Part shown: positions 10,058-54,490 of the stretch, one piece after another
Layout: each line of letters starts with the position of its first letter
Numbering within the stretch: position 1 is the stretch's first letter
NCBI GenBank assembly: GCA_012839805.1
Contig: DUMU01000007.1
Span: forward strand, 78,374-142,373
Origin: Bacillota bacterium
GTDB lineage: Bacteria > Bacillota > Limnochordia > Limnochordales > DUMU01
Direction of reading: 5' to 3'
Length of the DNA stretch: 64,000 nt
The notes under the pieces: model-generated
Databases searched by the model: none
Seen by the model: only the letters and a program-made list of their open reading frames with translations
Told to the model about the DNA's origin: nothing
Program-made: the position numbers and the translations under genes

Positions 10058-10078
10058 CGTCTACGACAACCCAAGAAT

Positions 10079-10939: not shown

Positions 10940-11008
10940 CTCATCTCATCACGACACCTTACCTGACGAGCTTTGGGTCGGTAGCCCTTTTGCGTCCCTG
11001 CACGAACC

Positions 11009-11599: not shown

Positions 11600-11615
11600 G
11601 ATGCCCCCTGCCCCC

Positions 11616-12359: not shown

Positions 12360-12483
12360 GCGTCAGTCGACACTCCTCTCAAACTCACCCGCTCGGCCCG
12401 GCCGGCGACGACCGCCATCGCCGACGGCCGGGCCGGGCTTACTCACCGGTTGACTCCGCGCGCACGCTCGCGTGCCCGCCCGG

Positions 12484-15972: not shown

Positions 15973-16068
15973 GATCCAATCCCTCCCGTCGACAATGCAA
16001 TGCATGCCCCAGCGGTGATTTGGGGGCAGGTGCGGACGGCCCCGCCTGCCCCCAAGCAAGCGAACGGT

Positions 16069-16803: not shown

Positions 16804-16955
16804 TTCGCAAGCCCTCCTGACTGGTTGAGATTGCGGGTTCACCACGGTAGCCCGGATCACCGGGCTTTCCCAACATTAGTACCTACGTGTTGTCCGTCCC
16901 GAATCCTCCCCCCTTGCTCAACTGGGCCGGCCGCGGGAGCCGGCGGAGCCGAAGG

Positions 16956-17186: not shown

Positions 17187-20100
17187 ATGCAGATGCGGCC
17201 CGCTTTCCGTCGCAAGTTGCCGCTGGCCTGCATTCTGGCGGCTGGGTTGCTTCTTTCGTGCACTGCGCCTCTCTTGTCCGCTGCCGGACCGGCGACGCGG
17301 GCTCCATCAGTATCGCCACAGCCCGGGCTTGACGGGGGGGCGATCGTTCCTCCGCCCTCAGGATCGCCGCGGCAAGAGTTCCTGCCAGGTGAGGTCCTGG
17401 TCAAGCCGAAGATCAAGATCCATCCTGGGGTGGCCATGTCCCAGGCGGTGGCCAGCGCCGAGGTCGGAGTGAAGACTTCCGTCGCCGAGTTGGTGGGGAT
17501 CGAGCCACAGGCGGTCAAGGTCAAGCCCATCTCGATGCCGGATGGAAGTCCCCTGCTGGTGGTAAGCATCCCCGAGGGATCGGAGGAGGAAGTGGCCAGG
17601 GCCCTGAGCGCCCGGCCTGACGTGGAGTACGCCGAGCCGAACTACCTTTGGTACCCGGACGATGCCGTCTTCCCGACGGATCCACGTTTCAGCTTCAACT
17701 ACGACTTGCACAACACCGGCCAGGTTTTCGTGCCGCCCCTCGGCTTGAGCGGAACGCCGGACGCGGACATCGACATGCCCGAGGCCTGGGGCATCCATCA
17801 GGCGAGCGGCAGCATCGTCGTGGCCGTCATCGACACCGGCATCTTTATCGACCATCCCGAGCTCGCGGGGCAGATTTGGACGAACCCGGGCGAAATCCCG
17901 GATAACGGCGTGGACGACGATGGGAACGGATACGTCGACGACGTCCACGGCTGGGACTTCTTCAATAACGATAACACCGTCTTCGATTTGGCCGATGGCG
18001 ATGAACATGGCACACATGTTGCCGGGACGATCGGCGCGCTGATGAATAACGGCATCGGTTCGGCCGGTATCAACGGCAAGATCCAGATCATGCCGTTGAA
18101 GTTCATCGGGCCGAACGGCGGATCGACTGAGGATGCAGTCCGGGCCATCGAATACGCTGCGTCTTTTGGCGTGAAAATCTCCAATAATAGCTGGGGCGGT
18201 GGGGGCTACAGCGACGCACTTCGCGATGCCATAGCTAGCTCCGGCATGCTTTTCGTAGCCGCCGCGGGAAACGATGGTTTGGATAACGACGTCGCTCCGC
18301 ACTACCCGTCCTCTTACGACCTGCCCAATGTGCTGGCCGTGGCCTCCAGCGACTGGAACGACGAGCTCTCCGGCTTTTCCAACTACGGGGCGACCAGTGT
18401 CGACCTGGCCGCGCCCGGGGACTTCATCTTCAGCACCTGGGTTCGGAACGTCAACGGAACGGCACAGCCTGCCTTCGCCTGGGCTTCGGGCACGTCAATG
18501 GCTACACCGCACGTAGCCGGGGTGGCTGCTCTCCTGCTCGACAAGTACCCGGACCTGCCGCTCTATCCGGGAGCGCCGGGAGCGCAGCCGGACTCACCGA
18601 CATTGAAGGACGTACTCATGTACTCCGGGGATTACAAACCGGCCTATCAAGGGCTCATGGTTGCCCCGGTCCGGTTGAACGCGGAGCGTGCTTTGGGCCA
18701 GGTCATCGCTCCTATCATTCAGAATCTCACCGTTAACGGCAGGCCTTTTGGCAACCGCACAACTCCGGGCCAGGCGGTGGCGTTCACTGTAACGGCCGAA
18801 ACCCCGTTCAGCACGGTGGCTTCGATCACCTGGGATTTCGGCGACGGGCAGGAGGCAGCCGGGGCGACCGTTACTCACGTCTATGGTCGGCCCGGAGTAT
18901 ATGAGGTCCGGGTAACGGTAACGGACGACGACGGCGATGCATCAACCGCCTTGGCCACGGTCGAGGTGGTAGAGGACAACAGAACGGTTGTCCTGGTGGA
19001 CGACGACGGCAGTGCTGCCAGCGAGATTCCTTTGATTAACGCTCTAGAAGCAGCAGGGCTTCCCTATGTGGTAGCCGCCCCGCAGGCAATTCTGCGGCTC
19101 AACCCCCAGGACCACCCGAACCCGATCTTCTGGGAGACGGGAACGGAGTTATCTGCACTTAACGTATGGGAACAGGGCTTCATCGCCGCGTTCCTCGATG
19201 CGGGTGGGCGTCTCTTCCTGAGCGGTCAGGATGTCTTGGAGGGACTGGCGGGAAGCGACTTCCTGACCCGGTATCTCCACGTTCAGGCCTTCCGGAGTGA
19301 TACGGGGGCAGACGTGATCGAAGGTATCCCCGGCGATCCGGTCACGGGCGGTATCGGTCGCATTCGCCTCCAATTCCCGGAGGGGATCACGGACCGGGCC
19401 GATGACCTTACTCCCACCGAGGATGCCGACCCGATCTTTACGACCTCCCTCAACACCAGCCCGGCGTTGCGCTATATCTCGTCGGATCAGCAAGGACCGC
19501 GCCTGGTCCTCTCTACCGTTTATTTCGGAGCAATCCCGCTCACTAACCCGGATCCGTCCAATGCCCGCGGGTTCGTGCTCAGCATCTACCATTTCCTGAC
19601 CGGGCAGGATGTCAATCTGCCACCGGTCGTCCTCAAGACCGGCGGCTCGTTCCAGATCGGCGACGCTCCTCTCACTGTTCAGGTCAACGCGACGGTAGAG
19701 GACCCCGTTCCCCAACCACTGGCGGTGGCGTACGCCTACTGGGACTTCGGCGATGGTTCACCGGTGGTAGGGGCGAAACCGCAAGAGAACTTCGCGGCCA
19801 GCCATACGTACCAGGCTCCCGGCTTTTACCGGGCGACGCTGCGGGTAGTTGATGACCAGGGTGAGGACACCATCGCCTATCGCAACTTCCTCGTACTCCC
19901 GCCAGGCACGAAGATGATCGCGGTGGACGACGGCGACAATCCCGGGACGTTCGGCCTGATCACCGGGGTTCTCGATCAGCTGGGGGTCCGGTATGTAGCC
20001 GTAACCCCGGACCTGCTGGTGGACGAGACCGGCATTCTCGACGGGGCCTGGCAGTACCCGCTCTTGTGGACCACCGGCGAGATCGGCTATACCGACCACT

Positions 20101-22259
20101 CGGAAGTGGCGGCCCTCGAAGAGTTCATGGACCAGGGCGGGCATCTCATCCTCTCCGGACAAGATGAGCTCTTCAACATCTGGGAAGCCGACCCGCAACT
20201 GATGGAGTTCGCTACGGACTATCTCAAGGTTGCCGACGTGGCCCATGACGTAGGGGCTCCGCACATCCTTGGGCAGCCGGGCGACCCGATTAGCGACGGC
20301 GTGGAGATCTACCCGCAGTTCCCCTTCGCCGACTGGAGCGACATCATCTTACCGGCTCAAGAAGCGTCACCGCTCTTCTGGCGGGACATGGCGGACTACG
20401 GCTACCCTGACTACTACCTCCCGAATGCTTTACGCTACGATGGTAGTTACCACTTGCTCTTCCTTGCCTTCCCGCTTGAAGCAGTACCGTACCAGTATCG
20501 GTTGTCGGCGTCACCCACGTCAGCTGCCGGTCCGGGAGGGGCGGTGGCCGTGCCTCTGGCTGGTGAAAGCAGCGCCAGTACGGGCACAGCGCAGGTGCTC
20601 AAGAGCCAGCGAAAAGCCGGTGCTGCCAAAGGCATGCAGCTTGAGCAACTGAAGAGTCTTGCCTGGCGGCCAACCGGCGAAGTGGGCCCCTTCGTACCCG
20701 GTACCTTGCCCTTGCTCCTTGGCCGAGCCTTGAGTGCCTCCGACGCCGGTATTGCGCCGCCGCTTGCCCCCCTGGTGCTTGCTGTGAGCGCGGACCAGGG
20801 CCCGGTCGAGCCGGGCGTGGCCGTGACTTTGCAGGCGCTGGCCGAAGACGTAGACGGAACGATCGTGGAGGCCTGGGTGGAGACCGGCGATGGAGCGCGG
20901 ATCGATGTACTGGCGGGCGATTCACGGGTGATAGCGGACGTGACGCACACCTATAGCGAGCCCGGCGTCTACGATGTCACTTACTACTTTAAGGACGACG
21001 CGGGTAACGAAGCGGTCGGCAGCAGCCGGGTGACCGTAGCCTACCTGCCGCAGGCTAGCCTTGAACCGGCGGCGGTGGAGGTGAGCCTCTCCCCCGCGAT
21101 CCAGGCGGAACGGTCACTTACTCTCCACAACTCCGACGAGCAAGCCGAGCTGCACTTTACTGCGGAAGTAGCAGAAGCTCCCGCATGGCTCACCGTCGAG
21201 CCCGCCGCGGGAACTGTGTCCCCGGCGAGTTCGGCCAGCCTCCGCTTGCTGTTCAATACCGACGGCCTGGAAGCCGGTCAGGACTATACCGCAACGGTGG
21301 TCGTCCAGACCGACGATCCCGACCGGCCGCGGTTCGACGTGCTGGTTACGCTCCACATCGTCACTCCGGCGGCTGCGGTCAACCCGGGTGAGCTCAGCTT
21401 CATGCTAAACCCGGACGAGCAGGCGACCCGGGCGATCACGGTCTCGAACGAGGCGTCGGGGGAGGGAGCCGTTCTGGCCTTCACCGCCAGCGTAGACGGC
21501 GAGACGGGATGGCTCAGTGTCAGCCCGGCCCAGGGAGAAGTCGCTCCGGAGGGTACGGCGGAACTAACCGTTACGGTCGATACCACGGCGCTGGTCGCCG
21601 GTGACTACCAGGGGAAGATCGTGATCGCAACTAACGACCCGGAGAAGCCGGAAATCCAGATACCGGTCACCCTGCAGGTGCGACCCATCAACCTTCAGGT
21701 ACTGAGCCCGCAAGCAGGCGACGTCTGGACGGGAGTGAAGGAGATCCGCTGGCAGGCGGAGGACCCTGAAAGCCAGCAAGAGACGGAAGCCCTCAAGATC
21801 ACGCTGGAGTACAGCCCCGATGGAGGCACGACCTGGAAGAGTATCGCCACCGATGAAGCCAACGATGGGCGTTACAGTTGGGATACCCGTTCGGTGGAGA
21901 AAGGCGGCAACCGCTTCGTCGTGCGGGTGACAGCGACTGACCCCGAGGGGCACGCGGCGACGGCCACGAGCGGGGTATTTACCGTGGCGGTAGTTCGGAA
22001 CATGGTCACCCACGGTCCGAACCCGGCCAGGGAGTACGTCACCTTCTACTACAACCTGAGCGAACCGGCGAAGCTCTACGTCTATGACATCAGCGGTCAC
22101 CTGGTGCTGGCTCAGGATCTCGCGCCTGCCGCCAACCACTATCGGTGGGACCTGACGGACGCAGCGGGTCGACCACTGGCCAGCGGGCTGTACCTTTACA
22201 CGGTAGTGACCGAATCGGGCCAGGCCTCGCCGGTCGAACGCCTGGTAATCAAGCGGTGA
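17187..22259 (+). CDS. secreted multidomain subtilisin-like (S8) peptidase with PKD repeats and a T9SS-type/FlgD-Ig-like C-terminal domain
   Basis: Signal peptide and an I9-like propeptide. Catalytic triad contexts VAVIDTGI, HGTHVAGTIG, SGTSMATPHVAG. Three PKD-like WDFGDG.../THTY...Y repeats, two ~100-aa Ig-like repeats, and a C-terminus GPNPAREYVTFYYNL...LYVYDISGHLV...WDLTDAAGRPLASGLYLYTV. The second ATG (17193) has better SD spacing. Confidence 0.88.
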   Translation: MQMRPAFRRKLPLACILAAGLLLSCTAPLLSAAGPATRAPSVSPQPGLDGGAIVPPPSGSPRQEFLPGEVLVKPKIKIHPGVAMSQAVASAEVGVKTSVAELVGIEPQAVKVKPISMPDGSPLLVVSIPEGSEEEVARALSARPDVEYAEPNYLWYPDDAVFPTDPRFSFNYDLHNTGQVFVPPLGLSGTPDADIDMPEAWGIHQASGSIVVAVIDTGIFIDHPELAGQIWTNPGEIPDNGVDDDGNGYVDDVHGWDFFNNDNTVFDLADGDEHGTHVAGTIGALMNNGIGSAGINGKIQIMPLKFIGPNGGSTEDAVRAIEYAASFGVKISNNSWGGGGYSDALRDAIASSGMLFVAAAGNDGLDNDVAPHYPSSYDLPNVLAVASSDWNDELSGFSNYGATSVDLAAPGDFIFSTWVRNVNGTAQPAFAWASGTSMATPHVAGVAALLLDKYPDLPLYPGAPGAQPDSPTLKDVLMYSGDYKPAYQGLMVAPVRLNAERALGQVIAPIIQNLTVNGRPFGNRTTPGQAVAFTVTAETPFSTVASITWDFGDGQEAAGATVTHVYGRPGVYEVRVTVTDDDGDASTALATVEVVEDNRTVVLVDDDGSAASEIPLINALEAAGLPYVVAAPQAILRLNPQDHPNPIFWETGTELSALNVWEQGFIAAFLDAGGRLFLSGQDVLEGLAGSDFLTRYLHVQAFRSDTGADVIEGIPGDPVTGGIGRIRLQFPEGITDRADDLTPTEDADPIFTTSLNTSPALRYISSDQQGPRLVLSTVYFGAIPLTNPDPSNARGFVLSIYHFLTGQDVNLPPVVLKTGGSFQIGDAPLTVQVNATVEDPVPQPLAVAYAYWDFGDGSPVVGAKPQENFAASHTYQAPGFYRATLRVVDDQGEDTIAYRNFLVLPPGTKMIAVDDGDNPGTFGLITGVLDQLGVRYVAVTPDLLVDETGILDGAWQYPLLWTTGEIGYTDHSEVAALEEFMDQGGHLILSGQDELFNIWEADPQLMEFATDYLKVADVAHDVGAPHILGQPGDPISDGVEIYPQFPFADWSDIILPAQEASPLFWRDMADYGYPDYYLPNALRYDGSYHLLFLAFPLEAVPYQYRLSASPTSAAGPGGAVAVPLAGESSASTGTAQVLKSQRKAGAAKGMQLEQLKSLAWRPTGEVGPFVPGTLPLLLGRALSASDAGIAPPLAPLVLAVSADQGPVEPGVAVTLQALAEDVDGTIVEAWVETGDGARIDVLAGDSRVIADVTHTYSEPGVYDVTYYFKDDAGNEAVGSSRVTVAYLPQASLEPAAVEVSLSPAIQAERSLTLHNSDEQAELHFTAEVAEAPAWLTVEPAAGTVSPASSASLRLLFNTDGLEAGQDYTATVVVQTDDPDRPRFDVLVTLHIVTPAAAVNPGELSFMLNPDEQATRAITVSNEASGEGAVLAFTASVDGETGWLSVSPAQGEVAPEGTAELTVTVDTTALVAGDYQGKIVIATNDPEKPEIQIPVTLQVRPINLQVLSPQAGDVWTGVKEIRWQAEDPESQQETEALKITLEYSPDGGTTWKSIATDEANDGRYSWDTRSVEKGGNRFVVRVTATDPEGHAATATSGVFTVAVVRNMVTHGPNPAREYVTFYYNLSEPAKLYVYDISGHLVLAQDLAPAANHYRWDLTDAAGRPLASGLYLYTVVTESGQASPVERLVIKR

Positions 22260-22274: not shown

Positions 22275-23174
22275 ATGAAGAGAGTTCAGTTGGCACGCAT
22301 TGTGTCCGGGGTGGTTGGTGGCGTCCTCCTCATCGGTCTGCTGCTCCTCGTGTCGGCAAGCATGAGCGCGCTGGCCGCGGCCGGTCCGCCGGACTATAGC
22401 CGTACCGGGGCAATGCTGGACATCGGCATGAGCGCGAGGGCAATGGCCCTGGGTGGGGCGTACGCGGCAGTGGTCGAGGACGCTACGGCGCTCTACTACA
22501 ACCCGGCCGGACTCCTGCGGGTGCAGGGGATACAGGCAAACTCACTCTATCTGGATCAACACGGAGCGGCCAGTTACATGGCTCTGGGAATAGCGTCCCG
22601 GGGCCTGGGAATTGGGCTGCTCCACCTGGGCTCGGCCGGCAACCCCTACCGGGACGAATTCGGTAACGATCTCGGCGACAACTTCGACCTGGGCGAAACC
22701 GCATGGATGCTGGGAGGAGCCCGGTCCGTTGGTGAACTGAAGCTCGGCGTTACCGGCAAGTACTACCGTCAAGTCATTGCCGACGAGGTAAGCTCTGGAT
22801 GGACGGTGGATGCAGGGGTGCTGCTGGAAAAGGGAAAGCTTACCCTGGCGCTGGTAGGGCGGAACCTGGCCGGGGAACTCTCGGGTTCACAGGGCCGGGA
22901 TCCGTTTGACGCCAGCTATGTGCTGGGTGTGGGCTACCGCTCCGGACCGCTGCTCTTGCTGGCCGACCTCGGCTTGGGTCAGGTGGTGCGGACGGGCGTG
23001 GAGTACCAGTTGGCCGGGGTTGCCCTGCGGGGCGGTCTCTGGAGTGAACAGGGAAATCAAGCGCTGACGGCAGGGCTGGGGACAAAGGTCGGGAACCTTA
23101 CGATCGACTACGCTCTACAGGTTCCCTCCCATCTCCCGGTTGAGCACCGTTTGGCGGTAGGAGTGCAGTTCTGA
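22275..23174 (+). CDS. PorV/PorQ-like outer-membrane beta-barrel protein (family assignment tentative)
   Basis: Signal peptide, then the N-terminal signature GMSARAMALGGAYAAVVEDATALYYNPAGL. Alternating beta-strand pattern and a C-terminal aromatic residue (...LAVGVQF). Starts 15 nt after the protease stop, with a gaggag SD. Confidence 0.65.
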   Translation: MKRVQLARIVSGVVGGVLLIGLLLLVSASMSALAAAGPPDYSRTGAMLDIGMSARAMALGGAYAAVVEDATALYYNPAGLLRVQGIQANSLYLDQHGAASYMALGIASRGLGIGLLHLGSAGNPYRDEFGNDLGDNFDLGETAWMLGGARSVGELKLGVTGKYYRQVIADEVSSGWTVDAGVLLEKGKLTLALVGRNLAGELSGSQGRDPFDASYVLGVGYRSGPLLLLADLGLGQVVRTGVEYQLAGVALRGGLWSEQGNQALTAGLGTKVGNLTIDYALQVPSHLPVEHRLAVGVQF

Positions 23175-23234: not shown

Positions 23235-23487
23235 CGCGCGCATATCCATATGCGACACGTGAGTGCACATGGAGCGGGGAGCGGTAGCCAGGAGGCCGGG
23301 GGCCGGGGTGTTTCGCGGCGCTTCCGGGGGGTGGGGGAGCAGAATAGGAGCGTGAAGCGGATAAGACGGCAGGAGACCGGTGCCGGGAAGAAGAATGAAG
23401 AGCGAGCGCGGGCCGCCCGCTGTACACCCCGGGACACCGGCCGCCCGCGCCAGTCCGCAAACGCGTCAATCGAGGTGTCAAGCCAGT

Positions 23488-25869
<2,382 letters not shown>

Positions 25870-26035: not shown

Positions 26036-26386
26036 TGGTGGAGGTGAGCGGAGTTGCACCGCTGTCCACGAGAGGGACCACACCCGCATCTACGAGCGTA
26101 GCTCTCGCTTTCTTCTCGTCCCGGCCGGCCCTCGAGAGCCAGGTCCGTCCGGCACCAGCCTGTATGAGTCCTCCGACCTACCAGGCACTCGGCCGGAGCC
26201 ATCCCGCTTCATGACACCTGGTTCCGGTTAGCGGGCGTCACCGGGCAGGCGTAGCAGCTGCTTACGCAGCGACTGCTAGAGCAGTGTTGTTGTTGGCACT
26301 TATTGGGTTTCCCCGGATTAACGAGTCAGGGAAGCTCGGCTCGCCGCGAATGCCACCCCATCCCGTGTCGAACCTGATTCACCCCC
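26036..26386 (-). ncRNA. ssrA: tmRNA (SsrA), tag peptide (A)ANNNTALAVAA
   Basis: 5' GGGGGTGAATCAGGTTCGACACGGG. Tag ORF GCC AAC AAC AAC ACT GCT CTA GCA GTC GCT GCG TAA at 26297-26262. 3' tRNA-like end GGTGCAACTCCGCTCACCTCCACCA with a G3:U pair in the acceptor stem. Confidence 0.92.
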
Positions 26387-35778: not shown

Positions 35779-36578
35779 CCGGATTGCCAAGGATTGACGG
35801 CCGGAGGCCAGATGAACTGCGGCCGGTGAAGATCGTTCGCAACTACACCAAGTGGGCGGAAGGATCGGTACTCATACAGAGTGGGGATACCTGGGTGGTA
35901 TGTACCGCGTCGGTGGAGGACCGGGTGCCGCCGTTCTTGCGCGGTACGGGACAGGGCTGGATAACGGCCGAGTACGGAATGCTTCCCCGTTCGACCAGTA
36001 CCCGCACCCAGCGGGACGTATCGCGTGGAAAGGTCGCCGGGCGGACCAGTGAGATCCAGCGTTTGATCGGGCGGGCGCTGCGGTCGGTGGTGGATCTGCA
36101 CGCGTTGGGGGAGCGCACGTTGTGGATCGACTGCGACGTGTTGCAGGCGGACGGGGGTACCCGCACGGCGTCCATCACGGGCGGGTTCGTGGCTATGGTG
36201 GAAGCACTGGGGCGAATGGCGGCCCAGGAGGGCTGGGACGCGCTGCCGGTATACGATTACGTAGCCGCCGTGAGTGTGGGTATGGTGGATTCGGAACCCC
36301 TTCTCGATCTTTGCTTCGAGGAGGATTCGCATGCCGGAGTAGACATGAACCTGGTCATGACCGGCACCGGTGAGTTCGTGGAGATTCAAGGAACCGCAGA
36401 GGGTGCCCCGTTCGGAGCCCGTGACCTCGACGCCCTGCTGCGGTTGGGGCGGGAAGGTATAGCACGGCTGATTGCGCTGCAAAAGGAAGTATTGGCGCCG
36501 GACCTCGCCGGACGGGTAGGGACGCGGCCGCGTCCAATTACGACCGGGCCGGCGGTGCCTTCGGGGCCTGAAGATTGA
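35775..36578 (+). CDS. rph: ribonuclease PH
   Basis: [13 protein letters not shown]...[19 protein letters not shown]...[14 protein letters not shown]...[22 protein letters not shown] overlap with murD. ~25-aa Pro-rich C-terminal tail. Confidence 0.92.
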
Positions 36579-36603
36579 GCAGGATCGAGGTCGGCTGAGA
36601 GGG

Positions 36604-37248
36604 ATGGGGCAGGTATTGCCGCGGCTGGTTCTGGCTACACACAATGACGACAAGGTGCGAGAGCTCCGGGAACTGTTACAGGAGCTGGTGCCCGCGCTCG
36701 GGCCGGTCGTGAGCGTAGGAGAGCTCCTCCGGCAGGGCCTGGGCGATCCGCCTGAAATAGTAGAGGATCAACCCACCCTGGAGGGGAACGCTGTCAAGAA
36801 GGCACGGGCGGTGGCAGCCTGGAGCGGGGTGCCGGCGCTCGCCGATGATACGGGGCTGGAAGTGTTCGCCCTGGGAGGACGTCCCGGGGTATGCAGCGCG
36901 CGCTATGCGGGCCCCGGGGCTACCTACGCCGATAACCGCCGCAAACTGCTGGGGGAGCTGGCCAACGTGGCGGACGAGGCGCGGGCGGCGAGATTTCGCA
37001 CCGTGGTGGCAGTGGCTTATGACCCCGAGCACGTCGAAACGGCCGAAGGGGAGCTCCGGGGGAGAATCACCCGGGAGGAACGGGGTCGAGCCGGCTTCGG
37101 CTATGATCCGATCTTCGAAATCCCGGAGTTGGGAAAGACCCTGGCTGAACTGACTCTCGAAGAGAAGAACCGCTTGAGCCATCGGGGCCGGGCCTTGCGG
37201 GCGGCGGTGCCCCTGCTCGAACGACTGGTTACGGGACCGGCCCGGTGA
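36604..37248 (+). CDS. rdgB: dITP/XTP pyrophosphatase (RdgB/HAM1 family)
   Basis: LVLATHNDDKVRE..., ADDTGLEVFALGGRPGV.SARY, GFGYDPIF and SHRG motifs. Confidence 0.9.
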   Translation: MGQVLPRLVLATHNDDKVRELRELLQELVPALGPVVSVGELLRQGLGDPPEIVEDQPTLEGNAVKKARAVAAWSGVPALADDTGLEVFALGGRPGVCSARYAGPGATYADNRRKLLGELANVADEARAARFRTVVAVAYDPEHVETAEGELRGRITREERGRAGFGYDPIFEIPELGKTLAELTLEEKNRLSHRGRALRAAVPLLERLVTGPAR

Positions 37249-37363
37249 CCGGAACGAGGGCGGGGCCGTTCACGCCCCGGGCCGCGAAGAAGGCTGCCGA
37301 GGCCCGCGCGGGACGGCGGGGATCGCGGCAGAGGTGCAGGTGTGCAGGTGCGGCGCTGCTGCC

Positions 37364-37393
37364 TTGACAGGGCATGGGATCTGGTGTTACGAT
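37364..37393 (+). promoter_or_regulatory. sigma-70-type promoter for the tRNA Pro-Gly-Arg-His cluster
   Basis: TTGACA (37364-37369), 18-nt spacer, TACGAT (37388-37393). Confidence 0.55.
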
Positions 37394-37423
37394 TCGCGGG
37401 CGAGGCGGGCACGAAAACGAATG

Positions 37424-37500
37424 CGGGGTGTGGCGCAGGTTGGTAGCGCGTCTGCTTTGGGAGCAGAAGGCCCGCGGTTCAAGTCCGCGCACCCCGACCA
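37424..37500 (+). tRNA. tRNA-Pro (anticodon TGG), CCA encoded
   Basis: Acceptor cggggtg/caccccg, anticodon loop ttTGGga, T-loop ggttcaagtcc. Confidence 0.92.
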
Positions 37501-37510
37501 TGATTTTATT

Positions 37511-37584
37511 GCGGGTGTAGCTCAATGGTAGAGCATCGGCCTTCCAAGCCGAGTACGGGGGTTCGATTCCCCTCACCCGCTCCA
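37511..37584 (+). tRNA. tRNA-Gly (anticodon TCC), CCA encoded
   Basis: Acceptor gcgggtg/cacccgc, anticodon stem tcggc/gccga with loop ctTCCaa, T-loop ggttcgattcc. Confidence 0.92.
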
Positions 37585-37607
37585 GTTTTTGCGCTTATTG
37601 CGTTATT

Positions 37608-37686
37608 GCGCCTGTAGCTCAGGTGGAGAGAGCGGGGGCCTTCTAAGCCCTGTCTTGCGGGGGTTCGAGTCCTCCCAGGCGCACCA
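37608..37686 (+). tRNA. tRNA-Arg (anticodon TCT), CCA encoded
   Basis: Acceptor gcgcctg/caggcgc, anticodon loop ctTCTaa, T-loop ggttcgagtcc. The variable region looks slightly long in my hand fold. Confidence 0.85.
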
Positions 37687-37699
37687 GCCAAAAGTTTGT

Positions 37700-37777
37700 G
37701 GTGAGCGTAGCTCAGATGGTTAGAGCGCCAGGTTGTGGCCCTGGAGGTCGTGGGTTCGAGTCCCGTCGCTCACCCCA
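37700..37777 (+). tRNA. tRNA-His (anticodon GTG) with encoded G-1, CCA encoded
   Basis: g-gtgagcg/cgctcac-c acceptor with G-1:C73, anticodon loop ttGTGgc, T-loop ggttcgagtcc. Confidence 0.92.
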
Positions 37778-37964
37778 TTTTGTGCCGCCGGAACCCAGTT
37801 GGTCCGGCGGCCTTGTTCTATGTCTTGGGCGAGTTTTCCCGGGAGAGACAGTTGACGACGCTTTCTCAGGCAGGGAAAATCGACGTAGAGACGGAATTCA
37901 CAAGCTAGCAGCTATTGGGCGCACAAGTTCATCCATTCATCCATCCAGGGTAGGGGGACGGCGG

Positions 37965-39413
37965 ATGTCGGATTTTCGCACGGCGTGGCATGAGCGGCTG
38001 AAGAAAGTAGTCCAACAGGGGATCCGGGCTCGCACGTTTGCGGCCTTCAATGCCAACGTGGACGTCATCGTCCACCTGGACGACGGCGTAGTCCAGCGGC
38101 TGCTACGAGATTCCGGAGTGTCGCTTTCCAGGGTCCGAGCCCGTTCGGCCGAAGCGCTGGAGCGTATCGTCAACCCGGAGGACTTCTTTACCGTGTTGAG
38201 GGACCGGCTCATCGCCGGCAAATCGTTTCATATCACGGTGGACAGCTCCGATCTCTTTACTTGGCTGGACGACCATTTCCAGAACGAGAAGGAGACGATG
38301 GGTGGGCAGGCTGGTATCATCGCCAACCAAATGGCGGAACTGGGGGCGCCGGCGTTGGTCTACACACCGGTACTATCGCCCAAGCAAGCCCGGCTGTTCC
38401 ACCCCGACGTCCGGACTCCTGTAATCTCTGATACTGGAGAACTAGAACTGGTACCGGCTGCAGCAGCCGCTCGAGCCGGCATCGGCACGAAAATCAACTG
38501 GATCCTGGAGTACGGGAAGGGCCTGGTTTTCCATTTCGGCGAGGAGACGGTGACTACGCCTCGAGCCAACCGGGTGATCCTCGCCAGCCGGCCGCGCGAG
38601 GCGGTGATGGGCTTTCCGCCCCAGCTTCGCCCCTTCCTGACCGACCTTGCTGCCTGCATGGACGTGGCGTTCATGGCGGGATACCACTATGCGAGCCACG
38701 AGTTGCCGGATGGACGTTCCTTCGCGGAATACCTGGCCGATAGCGTCGCCGACCTGCGAGCCCTGAAAGCAGGCAACCCCCAGCTCAGGATTCATCTGGA
38801 GTACGTTCCCATGCAGGATCCGGAACTCGAACGCAAAATGCTACTCGGGGTGGGCCGGGAGATCTCGAGCTTTGGCATCAATGAAAACGAGATCCGGCGG
38901 GTGCTGCGGGAGTTCGGGTACGAGGAGGAGGCGCGCCGGGTCGAGGAGGCCGAGTCGGCCTACACCCTGTACCGGGGAGCTCTCGCCCTCGCCGGTGAAT
39001 TGGGACTCGACAGAATCCAAGTTCACAACCTGGGCTACTACGTACTGGTCCTGCGCAAGCCCTATCCTGTGCCGGCCGAAGAGGTACGGAATGCTTGTCT
39101 ATACGGTTCCTGCGTCAACGCGCTGAAGGCCCGGGACGGGGGTTACGTCCGGGGCGATTGTGTCTACCAGGCGGCCGAGATCCCGCTCTCCGATATAGGC
39201 TTTACCAACCTGGAGACGCTGGCCCGGGATCTCGGGCTCTCCGGGCAGGCCCAGGAGGCTTTCCTTGCCCAAGGCATCCTGGAAGAGGAAGACCATATAT
39301 TGGTAGCCGTTCCTGCCCACGTGGTACCCAATCCGGTGAGCACGGTCGGCATGGGCGATACCATCTCCTCGTCCTCATACGCCCGGGAGCTTCAGCCGCT
39401 CCCCGTGTGCTAA
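37965..39413 (+). CDS. ADP-dependent sugar kinase (ADP-dependent phosphofructokinase/glucokinase family, PF04587-like)
   Basis: AAFNANVDVIVHL, MGGQAGIIANQMA and C-terminal PNPVSTVGMGDTISSSSYA closely resemble archaeal ADP-PFK/ADP-GK signatures. ATG at 37965. The ORF-track start (37698) lies inside tRNA-His. Confidence 0.8.
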   Translation: MSDFRTAWHERLKKVVQQGIRARTFAAFNANVDVIVHLDDGVVQRLLRDSGVSLSRVRARSAEALERIVNPEDFFTVLRDRLIAGKSFHITVDSSDLFTWLDDHFQNEKETMGGQAGIIANQMAELGAPALVYTPVLSPKQARLFHPDVRTPVISDTGELELVPAAAAARAGIGTKINWILEYGKGLVFHFGEETVTTPRANRVILASRPREAVMGFPPQLRPFLTDLAACMDVAFMAGYHYASHELPDGRSFAEYLADSVADLRALKAGNPQLRIHLEYVPMQDPELERKMLLGVGREISSFGINENEIRRVLREFGYEEEARRVEEAESAYTLYRGALALAGELGLDRIQVHNLGYYVLVLRKPYPVPAEEVRNACLYGSCVNALKARDGGYVRGDCVYQAAEIPLSDIGFTNLETLARDLGLSGQAQEAFLAQGILEEEDHILVAVPAHVVPNPVSTVGMGDTISSSSYARELQPLPVC

Positions 39414-39491
39414 CCCGACCCGAGCTCCGGTAGAGGGCCGGATAAAGCTGCTCGCCTAGCCGCAGACTAAGCGTCGATCGCCGTCGCCGTC

Positions 39492-39525
39492 CCTGGCGCC
39501 GGCCGGTCCACCGGCCGGCGCCAGG
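39492..39525. other. perfect 15-bp GC-rich hairpin (CCTGGCGCCGGCCGG-tcca-CCGGCCGGCGCCAGG)
   Basis: Read directly. Lies 79 nt after the kinase stop. No U-tract. Confidence 0.6.
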
Positions 39526-39628
39526 CGGTCAGGGTAAACCGGCGGCGATGACGAGCAGGGCGATCCGCTGGTACCGGCCCGGCCGGCCGCCGGCGGTATG
39601 CAGGGACGCCCGGTGGGGAGGAACGAGC

Positions 39629-41125
39629 ATGCCTACCGGCCAGGAGTTCGACGAAACCTACAAAATACTGGTGGTGGCCGCGGAGGCGACACCGTTCGCC
39701 AAGACCGGGGGACTGGGCGATGTGGCGGGGTCGCTGCCGAAGGCGCTTTCCACTTGGGGAAACGACGTCCGGCTGGTGATTCCCCGCTACCGGGGCATCG
39801 ATGATTGGAAGGTGTTGGGGGACTTCCCCGTCTGGGTGAACGGCCGGCGAGAAACGGCGGTGCTGCGCCAGTCCCACCTCCGAGCGCGGCTTGACGACGT
39901 CGAGCGTCTCGTCCCGGTTTACTTCGTTGACAACTATCACTATTTCGACCGCGATCGCTTCTACAACTATGCGGACGATGCCGAACGGTGGGCTTTTTTC
40001 TGCCGGGCGGTATTGGAGATGATCCGGTTTCTCGAATGGCGGCCGGACATCATTCACGGTCATGACTGGCAAACCGGGCCGGTACCGCTCCTACTCAAAA
40101 CCCATTACGTTCACGATCCGTTCTACAGCTCGATCGCCACGGTGTTTACGGTTCACAATCTGAAATACCAGGGTAACTTCGGGCGTGAAGCCCTGGGCTT
40201 CCTGGGCCTGGGAGACGAGTTCTTCACCCCCGAACGGGTCGAATTCTACGGCAAGGTGAGTTACCTCAAGGCGGGTCTCGTCTTTGCCGATCTACTCAGC
40301 ACCGTGAGCCGGCGCTACGCCCGGGAGATCCAGGAATCCGGCAAGGGCTTCGGCCTCGAGGGGGTGCTGGCCCAAAGAGGACAGGAGCTCTTCGGTATTC
40401 CCCACGGTCTGAACTACCACGAGTTCAACCCTGCTACCGATCCGCGTCTTCACCACAATTACACCTTAGCCAATGCCATCCAGGGGAAACGGGCCGGCAA
40501 GCAGGCCCTGCAAAAGGAGTTGGGGTTGCCCATCGTGGAGCTGCCCGTGGTGGGGATGGTCACCCGTTTCGAGAGTGACAAGGGGATCGAGCTGCTCCAG
40601 GGGGCGGAGGAACTTCTCCGTGAGGACATCCAGCTCGTCCTGCTTGGGCTAGGCGAACAGCGCTACGAGGCTTGGGCCCGGGACCTGGCCCGGCGGTACC
40701 CCGAACGGGTGGGGCTGCAGATCGGGTTCAACACCGTGCTCGCCCAGCGCATCTATGCGGGAGCGGACATCATGCTCTTCCTCAGCCGGCTCGAGCCGGA
40801 TGGGATGGGGCAGCTGATCGCGCTCCGCTACGGAGCGATTCCCGTCGCTCATGCCACGGGAGGCTTCGCCGACACCATCATGGATTACGACGGTCAGGCC
40901 GGCACGGGTACGGGATTCCTTTTCTCTCCTTATGAACCGGCGGCCCTGCTCCAGGCGGTCCGGCGGGCGCTGGGGGTCTACCACAACGCCGAACGCTGGC
41001 GGCTCCTGGTGGAGGCGGCCATGCGGAGTGATTTTTCGTGGAACCGGGTGGCCGGAGAATACATGGGGCTCTACCACCTTGCCGAGCAGAAGATGCGCCA
41101 GCGGGAGCTGGTCGCGGTGGTTTGA
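39629..41125 (+). CDS. glgA: glycogen synthase GlgA (ADP-glucose type)
   Basis: ILVVAAEATPFAKTGGLGDVAGSLPKAL, HGHDWQTG, PSRLEPDGMGQL-type block (LSRLEPDGMGQLIALRYG). ATG at 39629 after ggggaggaa. Confidence 0.9.
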   Translation: MPTGQEFDETYKILVVAAEATPFAKTGGLGDVAGSLPKALSTWGNDVRLVIPRYRGIDDWKVLGDFPVWVNGRRETAVLRQSHLRARLDDVERLVPVYFVDNYHYFDRDRFYNYADDAERWAFFCRAVLEMIRFLEWRPDIIHGHDWQTGPVPLLLKTHYVHDPFYSSIATVFTVHNLKYQGNFGREALGFLGLGDEFFTPERVEFYGKVSYLKAGLVFADLLSTVSRRYAREIQESGKGFGLEGVLAQRGQELFGIPHGLNYHEFNPATDPRLHHNYTLANAIQGKRAGKQALQKELGLPIVELPVVGMVTRFESDKGIELLQGAEELLREDIQLVLLGLGEQRYEAWARDLARRYPERVGLQIGFNTVLAQRIYAGADIMLFLSRLEPDGMGQLIALRYGAIPVAHATGGFADTIMDYDGQAGTGTGFLFSPYEPAALLQAVRRALGVYHNAERWRLLVEAAMRSDFSWNRVAGEYMGLYHLAEQKMRQRELVAVV

Positions 41126-41151
41126 CGGTCCGGCGGGTGCTGTGCTATATT
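41122..41151 (+). promoter_or_regulatory. sigma-70-type promoter for tRNA-Lys/tRNA-Leu
   Basis: TTGACG (41122-41127), 18-nt spacer, TATATT (41146-41151), 14 nt before the tRNA-Lys 5' end. The -35 element overlaps the glgA stop. Confidence 0.55.
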
Positions 41152-41165
41152 TACAAAGGACTTGA

Positions 41166-41241
41166 GAGCCGGTAGCTCAGCAGGTAGAGCAGCGGACTTT
41201 TAATCCGCGGGTCGAGGGTTCGAGTCCCTCTCGGCTCACCA
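41166..41241 (+). tRNA. tRNA-Lys (anticodon TTT), CCA encoded
   Basis: Acceptor gagccgg/tcggctc, anticodon stem gcgga/tccgc with loop ctTTTaa, T-loop ggttcgagtcc. Confidence 0.92.
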
Positions 41242-41290
41242 TTTTCTTCTGTTGCCTCAGTGTAGTGTCTGGTTTTTCGACCGGCTTGAC

Positions 41291-41375
41291 GCGAGAGTGA
41301 TGGAACTGGTAGACATCGGCGACTTAGGATCGTCGGCCTTACGGCGTGGGGGTTCGAGTCCCCCCTCTCGCACCA
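41291..41375 (+). tRNA. tRNA-Leu (anticodon TAG), long variable arm, CCA encoded
   Basis: Acceptor gcgagag/ctctcgc, anticodon stem ggcga/tcgtc with loop ctTAGga, variable arm ggccttacggcgt, T-loop ggttcgagtcc. Confidence 0.92.
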
Positions 41376-41386
41376 GGAAATGGGAA

Positions 41387-41415
41387 GGGCAGCCATCCCC
41401 GGCGGATGACTGCCC
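41387..41415 (+). terminator. hairpin after the tRNA pair (possible terminator)
   Basis: GGGCAGCCATCC-ccggc-GGATGACTGCCC (one mismatch), followed by CTTATGCGCTTTAT. Confidence 0.4.
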
Positions 41416-41529
41416 CTTATGCGCTTTATCTATGCCGGTCTGGCTTTCTCTACGCCGGCCGGCCGGATAAGCACGAGAGCGGGCGGCACGGAGAGCCGGG
41501 ACGGCGAGCAGGGAGGAGAAATACGGGGA

Positions 41530-42945
41530 ATGAAGGCATCGGTCGAGAAGCGGGATAAGAACGTAGTAGCGTTGACGGTGGAGGTTCCGGCCGAAGAGGT
41601 CGAGCAGGCCGTAGAGCGAGCTTACCGGCGGCTCCTTCCCAGGCTCAGGATCCCTGGTTTCCGTCCCGGCAAGGCACCGCGCTCGGTAGTAGAGGCGCGT
41701 CTCGGTCGCGAGTACCTCCTGAACGAAGCGGTGGAAGACATGGTTCCCCGGGCGTACGAGTCGGCGGTCAGGGAATACGCCCTCGAGCCCGTGGAACGGC
41801 CCCGGATCAAGCTGACCCAGGCCGAGCCCGGAAAACCCTTGATCTTCGAGGCTCAAGTGACCGTTACTCCCGAAGTGGAACTGGGGGAGTACCGCGGTCT
41901 GGAGGTGGAGCGGCCGGTCAGGGCGGTGACCGAGGCCGACGTCGAGCGGGTGCTGGACTCCCTGCAGGAACGGGCAGCCCAGCTGGTGGTGGTGGAGCGG
42001 CCGGTGCAAGCAGGCGATTTCGCCACCATCGACTTTGCCGGGCTCCTTGAGGGCAAGCCCTTCCGGGGAGGGGCGGCCAGCGATTACGTACTGGAGGTGG
42101 GCAGGGGGGCCTTTCCGGCGGACTTCGAGAATGCCTTGATCGGGATGAAGGCGGGGGAGACCAGGACGGTCCCGGTTCGCTTCCCCGACCAGTACAGCAA
42201 CCCCGAGCTGGCCGGGAAGGAAGTGCAGTTCACCGTGACGGTGAAGGCGGTTCGGGAAAAGCGAGTGCCTCCCCGGGATGATGAGTTGGCCCGGACGGTG
42301 GGGGAGTTCGAAACTTTAGAACAACTTCGCCAGGATATCCGTCAGAGGTTGGAGCAGCAGGCGGAGGCAGAGGCGGAAGAGAAAGTGAGGGAAGCTCTTG
42401 TCCGTCGCGTTACCTCTGAAGCCCGGGTGGAGATTCCCCAGGTCATGATCGACCGGGGCATCGACCGTATGTTGCGCCGCTTCGAGGAAAGCCTGGCCTA
42501 CCGCGGGATGACCCTGGAACGATATCTGGACGTGGCCGGCAAGACTCTGGAACAGCTGCGATCCGAGCTTGCCCCCAGCGCGACCGAGATGGTCAAAAGC
42601 GAGCTTTGCCTGGCTGCCATCGCCCGGCGGGAGGGGTTGACCGCTACCGAGGAAGAGGTCAGGGAAGAAGTGGAAAGGCGGGTCGGCCTGGCCCGGGATG
42701 AGAAAGAAGCGAAGGAGTTGCGGGAGCTCTGGGAAGGAGAAGCGGGCAAGGAGTTGATCCGGGAAACGATAGAAGAGCGGAAGGCGATAAGGTTTCTGCG
42801 AGACCAGGCCCGGGTCAATACGGTCATCGTGGCCGAACCGGAGCCGGCCGCCGAACCGGGCAAGGAGGGTGAAGAGGCTCCTCGCGCCCCCCAAGCCGGG
42901 TCACCTGCGAGGGAGGCCTCCGGTGAGCAGGACGCCTCCGGGTGA
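41530..42945 (+). CDS. tig: trigger factor
   Basis: MKASVEKRDKNVVALTVEVPAEEV..., LRIPGFRPGKAPRSVVE, FKBP-like middle domain. Acidic/Pro-rich C-terminal tail. ATG at 41530 after gggaggag. Confidence 0.92.
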   Translation: MKASVEKRDKNVVALTVEVPAEEVEQAVERAYRRLLPRLRIPGFRPGKAPRSVVEARLGREYLLNEAVEDMVPRAYESAVREYALEPVERPRIKLTQAEPGKPLIFEAQVTVTPEVELGEYRGLEVERPVRAVTEADVERVLDSLQERAAQLVVVERPVQAGDFATIDFAGLLEGKPFRGGAASDYVLEVGRGAFPADFENALIGMKAGETRTVPVRFPDQYSNPELAGKEVQFTVTVKAVREKRVPPRDDELARTVGEFETLEQLRQDIRQRLEQQAEAEAEEKVREALVRRVTSEARVEIPQVMIDRGIDRMLRRFEESLAYRGMTLERYLDVAGKTLEQLRSELAPSATEMVKSELCLAAIARREGLTATEEEVREEVERRVGLARDEKEAKELRELWEGEAGKELIRETIEERKAIRFLRDQARVNTVIVAEPEPAAEPGKEGEEAPRAPQAGSPAREASGEQDASG

Positions 42946-52807: not shown

Positions 52808-53038
52808 GTGTCTTACCTCCCCTCCAATGAACATGTTACGGTGTTCACAGTATCAAAGGTAGATGCCGGGTGGCGTTTACGGGACATATGTCCTATAGAT
52901 GTTCAGACAAACGTCTCGGACGGGAGGGGTGGGCGGCCCGACTCGGGAAGGAGAGGGTCAAGGCCCCTACCCGCGAGGAGTCAGGGGTGGCGGGGAAGTA
53001 GCGTTCGGGTGTAAAAAACATTGGAGGTGGATGTCCCA

Positions 53039-54490
53039 GTGGGGCCAGAAAAAAGGCTGTTGTCGCTGCCGCCTTCGGTGCCGGCAGAGATCTTCCGTGA
53101 ATATGACCTGCGGGGTTTGACCGCGTCCCAGCTTACCCCCGAGGTCATGGGGCTTTTGGGGAGAGTGCTCGCCCGCTACTACCAGGACGCGGGCGAGAAG
53201 CGGGTGCTGGTAGGTCGTGATAACCGCCTGAGCTCTCCGGACCTGCGCGACGCACTGGTAGAAAACCTGCTCGCGAACGGCATGGACGTGGTCGATCTCG
53301 GCGTGGTCACTACCCCGCTTTTCTACTACGCCCGCGTTCATCTGGGACTGAATGCCGGTCTGATGATCACTGCGAGCCATAACCCCCCGCAATACAATGG
53401 CCTCAAAGTCGCTCTCGGCTTCGCGACGATCTACGGCGAGGAGATCCAGCGCCTGCGCGCCCTGGCCGACCGGCTGCTCCGCGAAGAACACGCCCGGGGG
53501 AAACCTGCGACCGCGACGGCGCCCGGCAAACTCGAACTGGTGAACGAGGGGAACTCCTATATCAACATGCTGGTAGAGAAAATCCGCCTGGGGCCGAGAA
53601 GGCTGAAGGTGGCCGTTGACTGCGGCAACGGAACGGCCAGCCTCTTTGCCGTGGAGTTCCTTGAGCGTCTCGGCTGCCAGGTGATTCCGCTTTATTGCGA
53701 GCCGGACGGGCATTTTCCCCATCATGAACCCGACCCCACCGTCAGTGCTAATCTTCGCGACCTCCAGCAGGCGGTGGTGGAGAACGGCGCGGACGTCGGT
53801 ATCGGGTTCGACGGCGACGCAGACCGGATCGGGGTGGTAGACGATCACGGCCAGATCGTGTGGGGCGATGAACTGATGATCCTATACTGGCGCGAGATCC
53901 TCCCCCGGTACCCGGGCGCGGTGGCCATTACCGAGGTCAAGTGCTCGCAAGCGCTGGTCGAGGAGATCGAGCGACTGGGAGGCAAACCGTTGTGGTACAA
54001 GACCGGCCACTCGCTCATCAAAGCGAAGATGAAGGAACTGGGTGCGGTCTTCACCGGTGAGATGTCCGGCCATATGTTCTTTGCCGACGAGTATTACGGC
54101 TTCGACGACGCGTTCTACGCCGCCGGCCGGCTCCTGCGCATACTCTCCCATGCTGATGAACCGCTTTCGAAGCTTCGCTCCGCCATCCCTCATTACCCCA
54201 GTACGGCCGAGACGCGGGTGCCTTGTACCGAGGAGGGTAAATTCCGGGTGGTGGCTGCGTTGCGGGAGGAGTTCCGGAGGAGGGACGGGGTGCTCGAAGT
54301 CATCACGGTGGACGGAGCTCGAGTAGTCTTCCCGGACGGATGGGGATTGGTCAGGGCCTCCAATACGCAGCCGGTCATCGTGGCCCGCTGTGAGGGGAGA
54401 ACGCCGGAAGCGCTCGCGAGGATCACTCAGACCATGAAAGAGGCGCTGCTGCGCCACCCCGAGGTTCGCGAGTTCGAGTGGGCCTATTGA
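53039..54490 (+). CDS. phosphomannomutase/phosphoglucomutase (alpha-D-phosphohexomutase family)
   Basis: Active-site TASHNPPQYNGLKV, Mg site GFDGDADRIGVVD, sugar loop GEMSGHMFF. GTG at 53039 after ggaggtgg. The ORF opens at TTG 53021. Confidence 0.88.
   Translation: MGPEKRLLSLPPSVPAEIFREYDLRGLTASQLTPEVMGLLGRVLARYYQDAGEKRVLVGRDNRLSSPDLRDALVENLLANGMDVVDLGVVTTPLFYYARVHLGLNAGLMITASHNPPQYNGLKVALGFATIYGEEIQRLRALADRLLREEHARGKPATATAPGKLELVNEGNSYINMLVEKIRLGPRRLKVAVDCGNGTASLFAVEFLERLGCQVIPLYCEPDGHFPHHEPDPTVSANLRDLQQAVVENGADVGIGFDGDADRIGVVDDHGQIVWGDELMILYWREILPRYPGAVAITEVKCSQALVEEIERLGGKPLWYKTGHSLIKAKMKELGAVFTGEMSGHMFFADEYYGFDDAFYAAGRLLRILSHADEPLSKLRSAIPHYPSTAETRVPCTEEGKFRVVAALREEFRRRDGVLEVITVDGARVVFPDGWGLVRASNTQPVIVARCEGRTPEALARITQTMKEALLRHPEVREFEWAY

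Follow-up and report, generated by a model that had tools for sequence, protein, structure and literature searches.

ADP-dependent kinases of the ribokinase superfamily, comprising phosphofructokinases (PFKs), glucokinases (GKs) and bifunctional enzymes, are still presented in the reviews consulted as an archaeal (and animal) trait, and the enzymology, the ancestral reconstructions and the specificity rules of the family all rest on Euryarchaeota. A 2025 review lists the PFK type of this family as archaeal, and lists bacterial ADP-PFKs only as enzymes of the PFK-A fold (PMC12965863). The abstract of one paper says of the bacterial presence of the family only that it "has been reported in bacteria". 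Geochorda and Carboxydochorda, according to the paper in which they are described, both have full Embden-Meyerhof gene sets, with most of the genes present in all Limnochordales, and the PFK type is left unstated there; the literature searched contained no statement on the PFK type of Limnochordia. Here we describe a gene of this family in a 64-kb stretch of DNA from a member of the Limnochordales (contig DUMU01000007.1, positions 78,374 to 142,373; hereafter the window), and the bacterial clade to which its product, referred to below as the kinase, belongs. We predict the kinase to be an ADP-dependent PFK.

The best match to the kinase in both sequence and fold is AncMsPFK (6C8Z, 6XIO), the reconstructed ancestor of the Methanosarcinales ADP-PFK/GK enzymes, which scores 265 bits (E = 9e-78 for 6c8z) in sequence searches of the PDB and superposes on our model of the kinase over its full length with template modelling (TM) scores of 0.83-0.84. 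The two share the two-domain architecture and the N-x-N-x-D, GGQ, K-x-N, R...R, HXE, NXXE/DXXE and GXGD motifs, but their identity is about 31-40%, Glu90 and Gln244 of AncMsPFK are replaced by His89 and His241, and the kinase is bacterial and lies in a separate, well-supported clade. The ancestor ancMT follows with 211 bits, and then PH1645 of Pyrococcus horikoshii (1U2X, 3DRW; EC 2.7.1.146; 197 bits, TM 0.83-0.89), a PFK-specific enzyme that is likewise without the Glu and keeps K-x-N and both Arg residues. PH1645 differs from the kinase in having Ala in place of His89 (His or Tyr in the clade), in its identity of about 30% and in coming from a hyperthermophilic archaeon; the kinase also falls below the equivalog cutoff of the ADP-PFK model TIGR02045. 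The bifunctional ADP-PFK/GK of Methanocaldococcus jannaschii (5OD2) shares family and fold (180 bits, TM 0.79-0.83), but it has the Glu and uses glucose, whereas nothing in the kinase indicates GK activity. The ADP-glucokinases (Thermococcus litoralis 1GC5, Pyrococcus furiosus 1UA4 and mouse ADPGK 5CCF) have the Pfam family, the fold and the catalytic motifs in common with the kinase; however, the similarity is weaker (107-119 bits for the Thermococcales enzymes, 90 bits for the T. litoralis construct 5O5X, and a TM score of 0.66 for mouse ADPGK) and the GK signature is missing in the kinase. These scores against solved structures place the kinase nearest the ADP-PFK side of the family. The ADP-using PFK-A enzymes of cyanobacteria (Synechocystis PFK-A1/A2) are the sole bacterial ADP-dependent PFKs in the literature searched, but they belong to the PFK-A superfamily (PF00365), with an unrelated fold, and have no homology to the kinase (PMC11609450).

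The kinase is a real and intact member of this mostly archaeal family. Its 482-residue product contains the motif blocks FNANVDVIV (residues 28-36), MGGQAGIIAN (112-121) and TVGMGDTISS (460-469), and its ATG at 37965 is preceded, 6 nt upstream, by GGGGGA. A longer open reading frame (ORF) starting at 37698 was rejected, as it begins inside the gene for tRNA-His. The identical product has been called independently in four other assemblies, all from biogas-fermenter metagenomes, and the same protein is an NCBI entry from a metagenome-assembled genome (MAG) named "Firmicutes bacterium" (locus tag GXX55_02115). Residues 24-473 match positions 3-429/430 of the PF04587 (ADP_PFK_GK) profile with E = 1.3e-66 and 225.5 bits (cutoff 27), and the PfkB/ribokinase profile PF00294 gives no match at E<=0.01. 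An AlphaFold2 model built from a 50-sequence alignment has a predicted local distance difference test score (pLDDT) of 95.6 and a predicted TM score (pTM) of 0.93, and is predicted to combine a Rossmann-like large domain with a small alpha/beta lid. It superposes on the ADP-PFK structures 6c8z, 1u2x and 5k27 with TM scores of 0.83-0.90, and on the ADP-PFK and ADP-GK structures as a group with 0.79-0.90, mouse ADPGK standing apart as noted above; against ATP-dependent ribokinase and adenosine kinases the scores are 0.33-0.43. An ATP-dependent PfkB/ribokinase identity was rejected on these scores and on the missing PF00294 match. The assignment to the ADP-dependent sugar kinases made in the initial annotation of this DNA therefore holds, PF04587 being matched over its full length and the ribokinase-type scoring that was named there as counter-evidence being absent. 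The family is also, as was stated there, mainly archaeal and eukaryotic: a count at 50% identity and E<=1e-3 gave only 458 clusters among 1.84 billion representative proteins.

The contacts of AncMsPFK with fructose-6-phosphate (F6P) and ADP, along with its alanine-scan kinetics (PMC7948494), were mapped onto the kinase through a phmmer alignment, with an offset of 21 for the chain numbering of 6c8z. All of the contacts except the two His replacements have counterparts (Table 1): GXGD, NXXE, HXE and R203 are present, and so are K176, N178 and R209, the residues for the F6P phosphate. Conservation of the AncMsPFK equivalents of these last three (K179, N181 and R212) is restricted to the PFK-specific and bifunctional enzymes, and that of E90 to the GKs and bifunctional enzymes (PMC7948494). 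By direct alignment, the E90 site is His89 in the kinase (GKSFHITV), Ala in the P. horikoshii PFK (GKPAAVPL) and Glu in ancMT and AncMsPFK; the kinase thus lacks the Glu, as a specific ADP-PFK does. Distant members of the family show a GK signature, with Glu at site 89, Leu/Met/Phe at 176, His at 178 and Asp at 209, in place of which the kinase has H89, N178 and R209. A GK identity was rejected in view of the missing signature, the replacement of the Glu by His89, and the scores of the NCBIfam ADP-GK models NF010642 and NF010641 (162 and 137 bits, under cutoffs of 387 and 554). The specificity residues, when inspected, thus follow the pattern of an F6P kinase and not that of a GK. The initial annotation had proposed "glucose or fructose-6-P" as the substrate; K176, N178 and R209 support the second half of this, and His89 with the lack of a GK-type His or Asp speaks against the first.

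This residue pattern is a property of the whole bacterial clade. Across 124 members, site 89 holds Tyr 70 times, His 53 times and Glu never, and K176, N178, R203 and H241 are found in every one. The catalytic motifs are likewise invariant, the catalytic Asp (D465) being retained in 123 of the 124 and R209 in 120. Near-invariance of the catalytic and F6P residues across the clade argues for a functional enzyme under purifying selection. Some single Limnochordia MAGs carry pairs of paralogues, namely P0062/P0305 (GX008_01465 and GX008_01535) and P0020/P0124 (GX977_12855 and GX977_06730). Separately, a sub-clade of four sequences (P0107, P0110, P0111 and P0124) has K176R and N178P, carries Leu or Phe at site 89 and varies at site 209; judged from these substitutions, it probably has a different substrate.

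Proteins 45-78% identical to the kinase are found in MAGs assigned to Limnochordaceae, Limnochordales, Limnochordia or unresolved Bacillota/Firmicutes. Anaerobic digesters are the source of many of these, and many have already been named "ADP-dependent glucokinase/phosphofructokinase" by NCBI and JGI. The clade is one that annotation pipelines already recognise, and the gene in the window is an ordinary resident gene. In a neighbor-joining (NJ) tree of 157 full-length sequences, computed on Kimura-corrected distances, the bacterial sequences group together as a single clade with 97.5% support (200 bootstraps). The clade comprises well over 100 clusters; all of its taxon-resolved members are Limnochordia and the others are unresolved Bacillota/Firmicutes, taxon names having been found for about six clusters among 20 representatives. 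A peptide scan of genome contigs with poorly conserved kinase peptides returned seven close loci only, and a profile search from 32 outgroup sequences gave 45 matches, almost none with organism names. Among the outgroups next to the clade, two are named Micrarchaeota and Norongarragalinales. Two others, P0132 and P0140, are flanked by genes for archaeal-type L10/P0 (with the RL10P insert), L12/P1-type Ribosomal_60s and Spt5-NGN proteins, and their archaeal identity was judged from these flanking genes. As archaea supply the nearest outside sequences, a transfer from archaea, if there was one, must be ancient and date to the base of Limnochordia or earlier. One contig, L007 (JBLNBY010000410.1, 3468 bp), is binned as Bacteroidota and carries kinase, glgA and tig in the order of the window and 77-81% identical to it; mis-binning of a Limnochordales fragment is the most likely explanation, rather than a second phylum with the gene.

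We hold with moderate confidence that the kinase is a specific ADP-PFK (EC 2.7.1.146), encoded by a resident Limnochordia gene of an old bacterial clade. Family, fold, conserved motifs and residues, clade, synteny and native composition are direct observations; we infer F6P as its substrate, ADP as its donor and its physiological role, the donor being suggested by family membership and by the conserved nucleotide contacts H354, L356 and R203. The mechanism that we propose is modelled on the homologous AncMsPFK-F6P-ADPbetaS structure. The kinase would move the beta-phosphate of Mg-ADP onto the 1-OH of F6P, yielding fructose-1,6-bisphosphate and AMP. D465 would serve as the catalytic base and R203 would grip the beta-phosphate of ADP, with Mg2+ bound via water molecules by E279 of HXE and N306/E309 of NXXE. 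The furanose ring would be bound by D33, G114 and Q115, and the 6-phosphate by N29, N31, K176, N178 and probably also H89 and H241, as the small domain shuts over the active site. With His in place of the glucose-orienting Glu, GK activity would be little or none. In the cell, the kinase would work in the upper Embden-Meyerhof pathway, which would also take in hexose phosphate freed from glycogen, and its gene would be of the housekeeping type in the class Limnochordia, descended from one ancient bacterial ancestor and duplicated later in some lineages.

The resident status of the gene can be assessed from its composition and its neighbours. Its GC content (0.616), its GC content at third codon positions (GC3, 0.743) and its codon distance of 0.028 to a pool of 19 neighbouring genes (with GC3 values of 0.69-0.82) are native. 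The block murD-rph-rdgB-(tRNAs)-kinase-glgA-tig-clpP-clpX-lon is conserved in two Limnochordales MAGs (L004 and L006), and the short contigs L005 and L007 match it as far as they reach. The kinase is 64% and 78% identical to its counterparts in the two MAGs, in proportion to the divergence of the flanking housekeeping genes (rph 73/84, glgA 65/79, tig 50/68, murD 61/71 and clpX 86/93%), and no integrase, repeat or mobile-element gene lies near it. Native composition, conserved synteny and proportional divergence together argue for vertical inheritance; the kinase is vertical within Limnochordales at least, and probably through the class Limnochordia. A recent genomic island was rejected in view of the native codon usage, the shared synteny and the lack of a mobile-element gene. 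A recent archaeal transfer, coupled to glgA as a glycogen-catabolic module, could appeal to the predominantly archaeal distribution of the family, to the tRNA clusters on either side of the gene, such clusters being often used for integration, and to the presence of glgA directly downstream in four Limnochordales genomes. It is nevertheless highly improbable, given composition values that all fall in the host range, the same synteny in genomes so far apart in their kinases, the lack of integrase, repeat or mobile-element genes nearby, a clade that reaches down to about 45% identity among named Limnochordia members, and the absence of the glgA link outside Limnochordales. The outcome is thus close to the old, vertically inherited bacterial clade that the initial annotation had set against its own idea of a "probable horizontal acquisition", and that idea survives only for an ancient event and fails for a recent one.

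Several observations weigh against the reading of the kinase as a specific ADP-PFK from an old bacterial clade. The literature searched contains no characterised bacterial PF04587 enzyme. TIGR02045 scores the kinase at 299.3 bits, below the NCBI equivalog cutoff of 408.1, and by this measure the kinase would be a divergent relative and not an orthodox ADP-PFK equivalog. The E90A mutation of AncMsPFK also lowers its PFK kcat 80-fold (PMC7948494), and site 89 therefore matters for F6P turnover as well; the His/Tyr found there in the clade is a third state, outside the characterised enzymes. No pfkA, pfp or ROK/glucokinase gene was found with Pfam and NCBIfam among the approximately 45 ORFs of the window, which covers little of the genome. 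In at least one Limnochordia MAG (L016), a variant paralogue has a classical pfkA-pyk pair 3.5 kb from it, and thus the ADP-dependent enzyme need not be the glycolytic PFK. In other Limnochordia, prs, ribokinase or DeoC-family aldolase genes lie near the kinase, making a pentose-phosphate-related or other phosphosugar substrate possible. Finally, the sister relation of the bacterial clade to the archaeal group has an NJ bootstrap of only 20%, and so no donor lineage can be named.

Some of these observations would also fit an ADP-dependent kinase for another phosphorylated sugar (for example sedoheptulose-7-phosphate, tagatose-6-phosphate or a ribose/ribulose phosphate), with the clade forming a new specificity class of PF04587. 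The His/Tyr at the E90 site is specific to the clade, the TIGR02045 score is low for an equivalog, and the two paralogues per MAG (in GX008 and GX977) suggest diversification. The neighbourhoods point the same way where the kinase lies between a racemase-like gene and prs (L008-L010; prs at 9550-10503), directly after ribokinase (L012, 3858-4781), or after a racemase-like gene without prs and a few genes downstream of a DeoC-family aldolase (L001 and L014); such neighbours may mark a pentose-phosphate connection, or be coincidence. However, all of the F6P ring and phosphate contacts of 6XIO are kept except E90 and Q244, and the neighbourhoods are inconsistent and mostly of the housekeeping kind (after argH in L013 and L015, after purK in L016, or beside the racemase-like gene), with no operon for an alternative pathway, and we regard another substrate as unlikely. 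A bifunctional ADP-PFK/GK like the enzymes of Methanococcales and Methanosarcinales, with His89 or Tyr89 standing in for Glu as the hydrogen-bond partner of glucose, is a further alternative. The nearest solved relatives, AncMsPFK and ancMT, are bifunctional-type ancestors; the glucose contacts of the M. jannaschii enzyme (equivalents of D36, G114-Q116, N181 and D471) are kept, with Q244 changed to His241 as in many family members; both His and Tyr are able to donate or accept hydrogen bonds; and the generic NCBI name mentions both activities. Yet every GK and bifunctional enzyme is described as conserving the Glu, which is found at site 89 in 0 of the 124 clade members, its mutation to Ala in AncMsPFK lowers the GK kcat 180-fold, and even AncMsPFK, with the Glu present, has a KM for glucose of 131 mM (PMC7948494). 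A bifunctional enzyme of this kind thus seems quite improbable.

With the kinase read as a specific ADP-PFK, the clade gains an interest that lies mainly in its being a bacterial branch of a well-studied archaeal family, and less in this particular locus. It is large, old and under purifying selection, and its Limnochordia hosts abound in anaerobic digesters and in subsurface habitats. It would offer an independent test of the specificity rules, its Glu site being His or Tyr. It would be an example of ADP-driven priming of glycolysis in bacteria, and would correct metabolic reconstructions of biogas-reactor MAGs in which PfkA and Pfp are the only enzymes counted. More tentatively, and on balance we doubt it, there might be a "modified Embden-Meyerhof" pathway throughout Limnochordia with the PF04587 enzyme as its main or only PFK; the paralogues (a Tyr/His duplicate and an R176/P178 variant) would then be a new bacterial round of specificity change, parallel to the GK/PFK split in Thermococcales, and His/Tyr would define a third active-site class.

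The gene directly downstream is glgA, as the initial annotation had it. Its start is the ATG at 39629, with the Shine-Dalgarno sequence GGAGGA 6 nt upstream, and the first in-frame ATG, at 39548, was rejected in its favour; the same 498-residue call is found in other assemblies. The product scores 494 bits with the ADP-glucose-type subfamily model TIGR02095 (cutoff 328), and has an N-terminal GT5 domain (PF08323, Glyco_transf_5; E = 7e-79) and a C-terminal GT1 domain (PF00534). The adjacency of kinase and glgA is kept in four Limnochordales loci (L004-L007), and in other Limnochordia the kinase is without a glgA neighbour. The spacer between the two genes in the window is 215 nt long, with an intergenic fold of -124.8 kcal/mol (z = -3.1), and contains a conserved block and a GC hairpin (Table 1). 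The consensus of the block across Limnochordales is CGGATAAAG-N15/16-CA[C/G]ACTA, and the corresponding spacer region lies at 9478-9575 in L006, at about 1060-1160 in L007 and at 11488-11530 in L004; the GC-rich hairpin keeps its position in L006 and L007, where its sequence is another. The hairpin of the window matches no Rfam family, and a terminator scan of it was negative, as there is no T-tract. The block is possibly an alternative-sigma promoter for glgA, and block and hairpin together would suggest separate regulation of glgA, through a promoter plus a leader hairpin or a T-less terminator. Nothing here demonstrates that kinase and glgA are co-regulated. A PFK would take up the F6P that comes from glycogen breakdown, as has been proposed for glycogen-forming methanogens, where the bifunctional ADP-PFK/GK of the M. 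jannaschii type is tied to glycogen use (review PMC12965863), a role like that suggested in the initial annotation. The link to glycogen turnover drawn in the initial annotation is nonetheless weak, and the synteny adds little to it, the adjacency being confined to Limnochordales and the conserved block and hairpin lying between the genes.

Table 1. Features of the window, and residues of the kinase that correspond to AncMsPFK contacts.
Feature	Position	Strand	Evidence or comment
ADP-dependent sugar kinase family gene, predicted ADP-PFK	37965..39413	+	482 aa
Phosphate and ring contacts	N29, N31, D33 (AncMsPFK N32, N34, D36)
Ring contacts	G114, Q115 (AncMsPFK G115, Q116)
F6P phosphate	K176, N178 (AncMsPFK K179, N181)
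ADP beta-phosphate	R203 (AncMsPFK R206)
F6P binding	R209 (AncMsPFK R212)
HXE motif (H277-L-E279)	E279 (AncMsPFK E282)
DXXE/NXXE motif (N306-E-N-E309)	N306, E309 (AncMsPFK D310, E313)
Nucleotide contacts	H354, L356 (AncMsPFK H360, L362)
Putative catalytic base, GXGD motif (G462-M-G-D465)	D465 (AncMsPFK D471)
tRNA cluster Pro-TGG, Gly-TCC, Arg-TCT, His-GTG, directly upstream of kinase	37424..37777	+	ARAGORN; Rfam tRNA matches 58-76 bits
Sigma-70-like promoter candidate TTGACG-17-GAAAAT	37852..37880	+	consensus scan 9/12; pattern match only
Conserved intergenic block CGGATAAAGC-N14-CAGACTA	39439..39469	+	alignment with L006, L007, L004
Perfect 15-bp GC hairpin CCTGGCGCCGGCCGG-tcca-CCGGCCGGCGCCAGG	39492..39525	+	spacer between kinase and glgA
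glgA, ADP-glucose-type glycogen synthase, 498 aa	39629..41125	+	TIGR02095, PF08323
tRNA-Lys-TTT and tRNA-Leu-TAG, downstream boundary before tig	41166..41375	+	ARAGORN, Rfam
PGM/PMM-family mutase	53021..54490	+	four PGM_PMM Pfam domains; context only
Membrane pyrophosphatase	23380-25869		family match above cutoff

The promoter candidate upstream of the kinase falls within the 187 nt that separate tRNA-His from the ATG, and an Rfam scan of 36500-42000 found tRNAs only. The phosphohexomutase that had been noted in this DNA is the PGM/PMM-family mutase 12 kb downstream of the kinase, in a separate transcription unit; its best NCBIfam match is PgmG (476 bits, under the cutoff of 600), and archaeal-type GlmM gives 386 (under 439). 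The membrane pyrophosphatase and the Rnf complex noted along with it are also in the window, the latter as a cluster (about 10079-16059) and a further rnfC (5988-7493). The "ATP-sparing metabolism" that the initial annotation built on them and the kinase is speculation, and nothing in the data supports it. Conversion of ADP to AMP spends one phosphoanhydride bond, the same as conversion of ATP to ADP once adenylate kinase is counted.

In the listed ORF of the pyrophosphatase, about 160 residues precede the Pfam match, and the true start is probably later than listed. Its best NCBIfam matches are Na+-translocating types, not H+ types, and a tmRNA gene (tag ANNNTALAVAA; 26036-26386) lies just downstream of it on the opposite strand. 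The two RnfC-type genes differ: the one apart from the cluster is canonical (495 bits), and a divergent one (127 bits, below cutoff; 14557-16059) heads rnfDGEAB. The cluster also has an extra gene for an FMN-binding PplA-like lipoprotein upstream, and downstream a gene for ApbE and one for a fusion of heptaprenyl-diphosphate-synthase-I and NusG_II; a further interval noted with the two RnfC-type genes is 16069-16860. Further along, a 1690-residue S8 protease (17187-22259) has PKD and BACON-like domains and, at its end, a type A sorting domain of type IX secretion (TIGR04183, 32 bits, cutoff 23), and the next gene (22275-23174) resembles PorV/PorQ (71 bits, under a cutoff of 90). Parts of type IX secretion are unexpected outside the Bacteroidota group and are found here in a Limnochordia genome.

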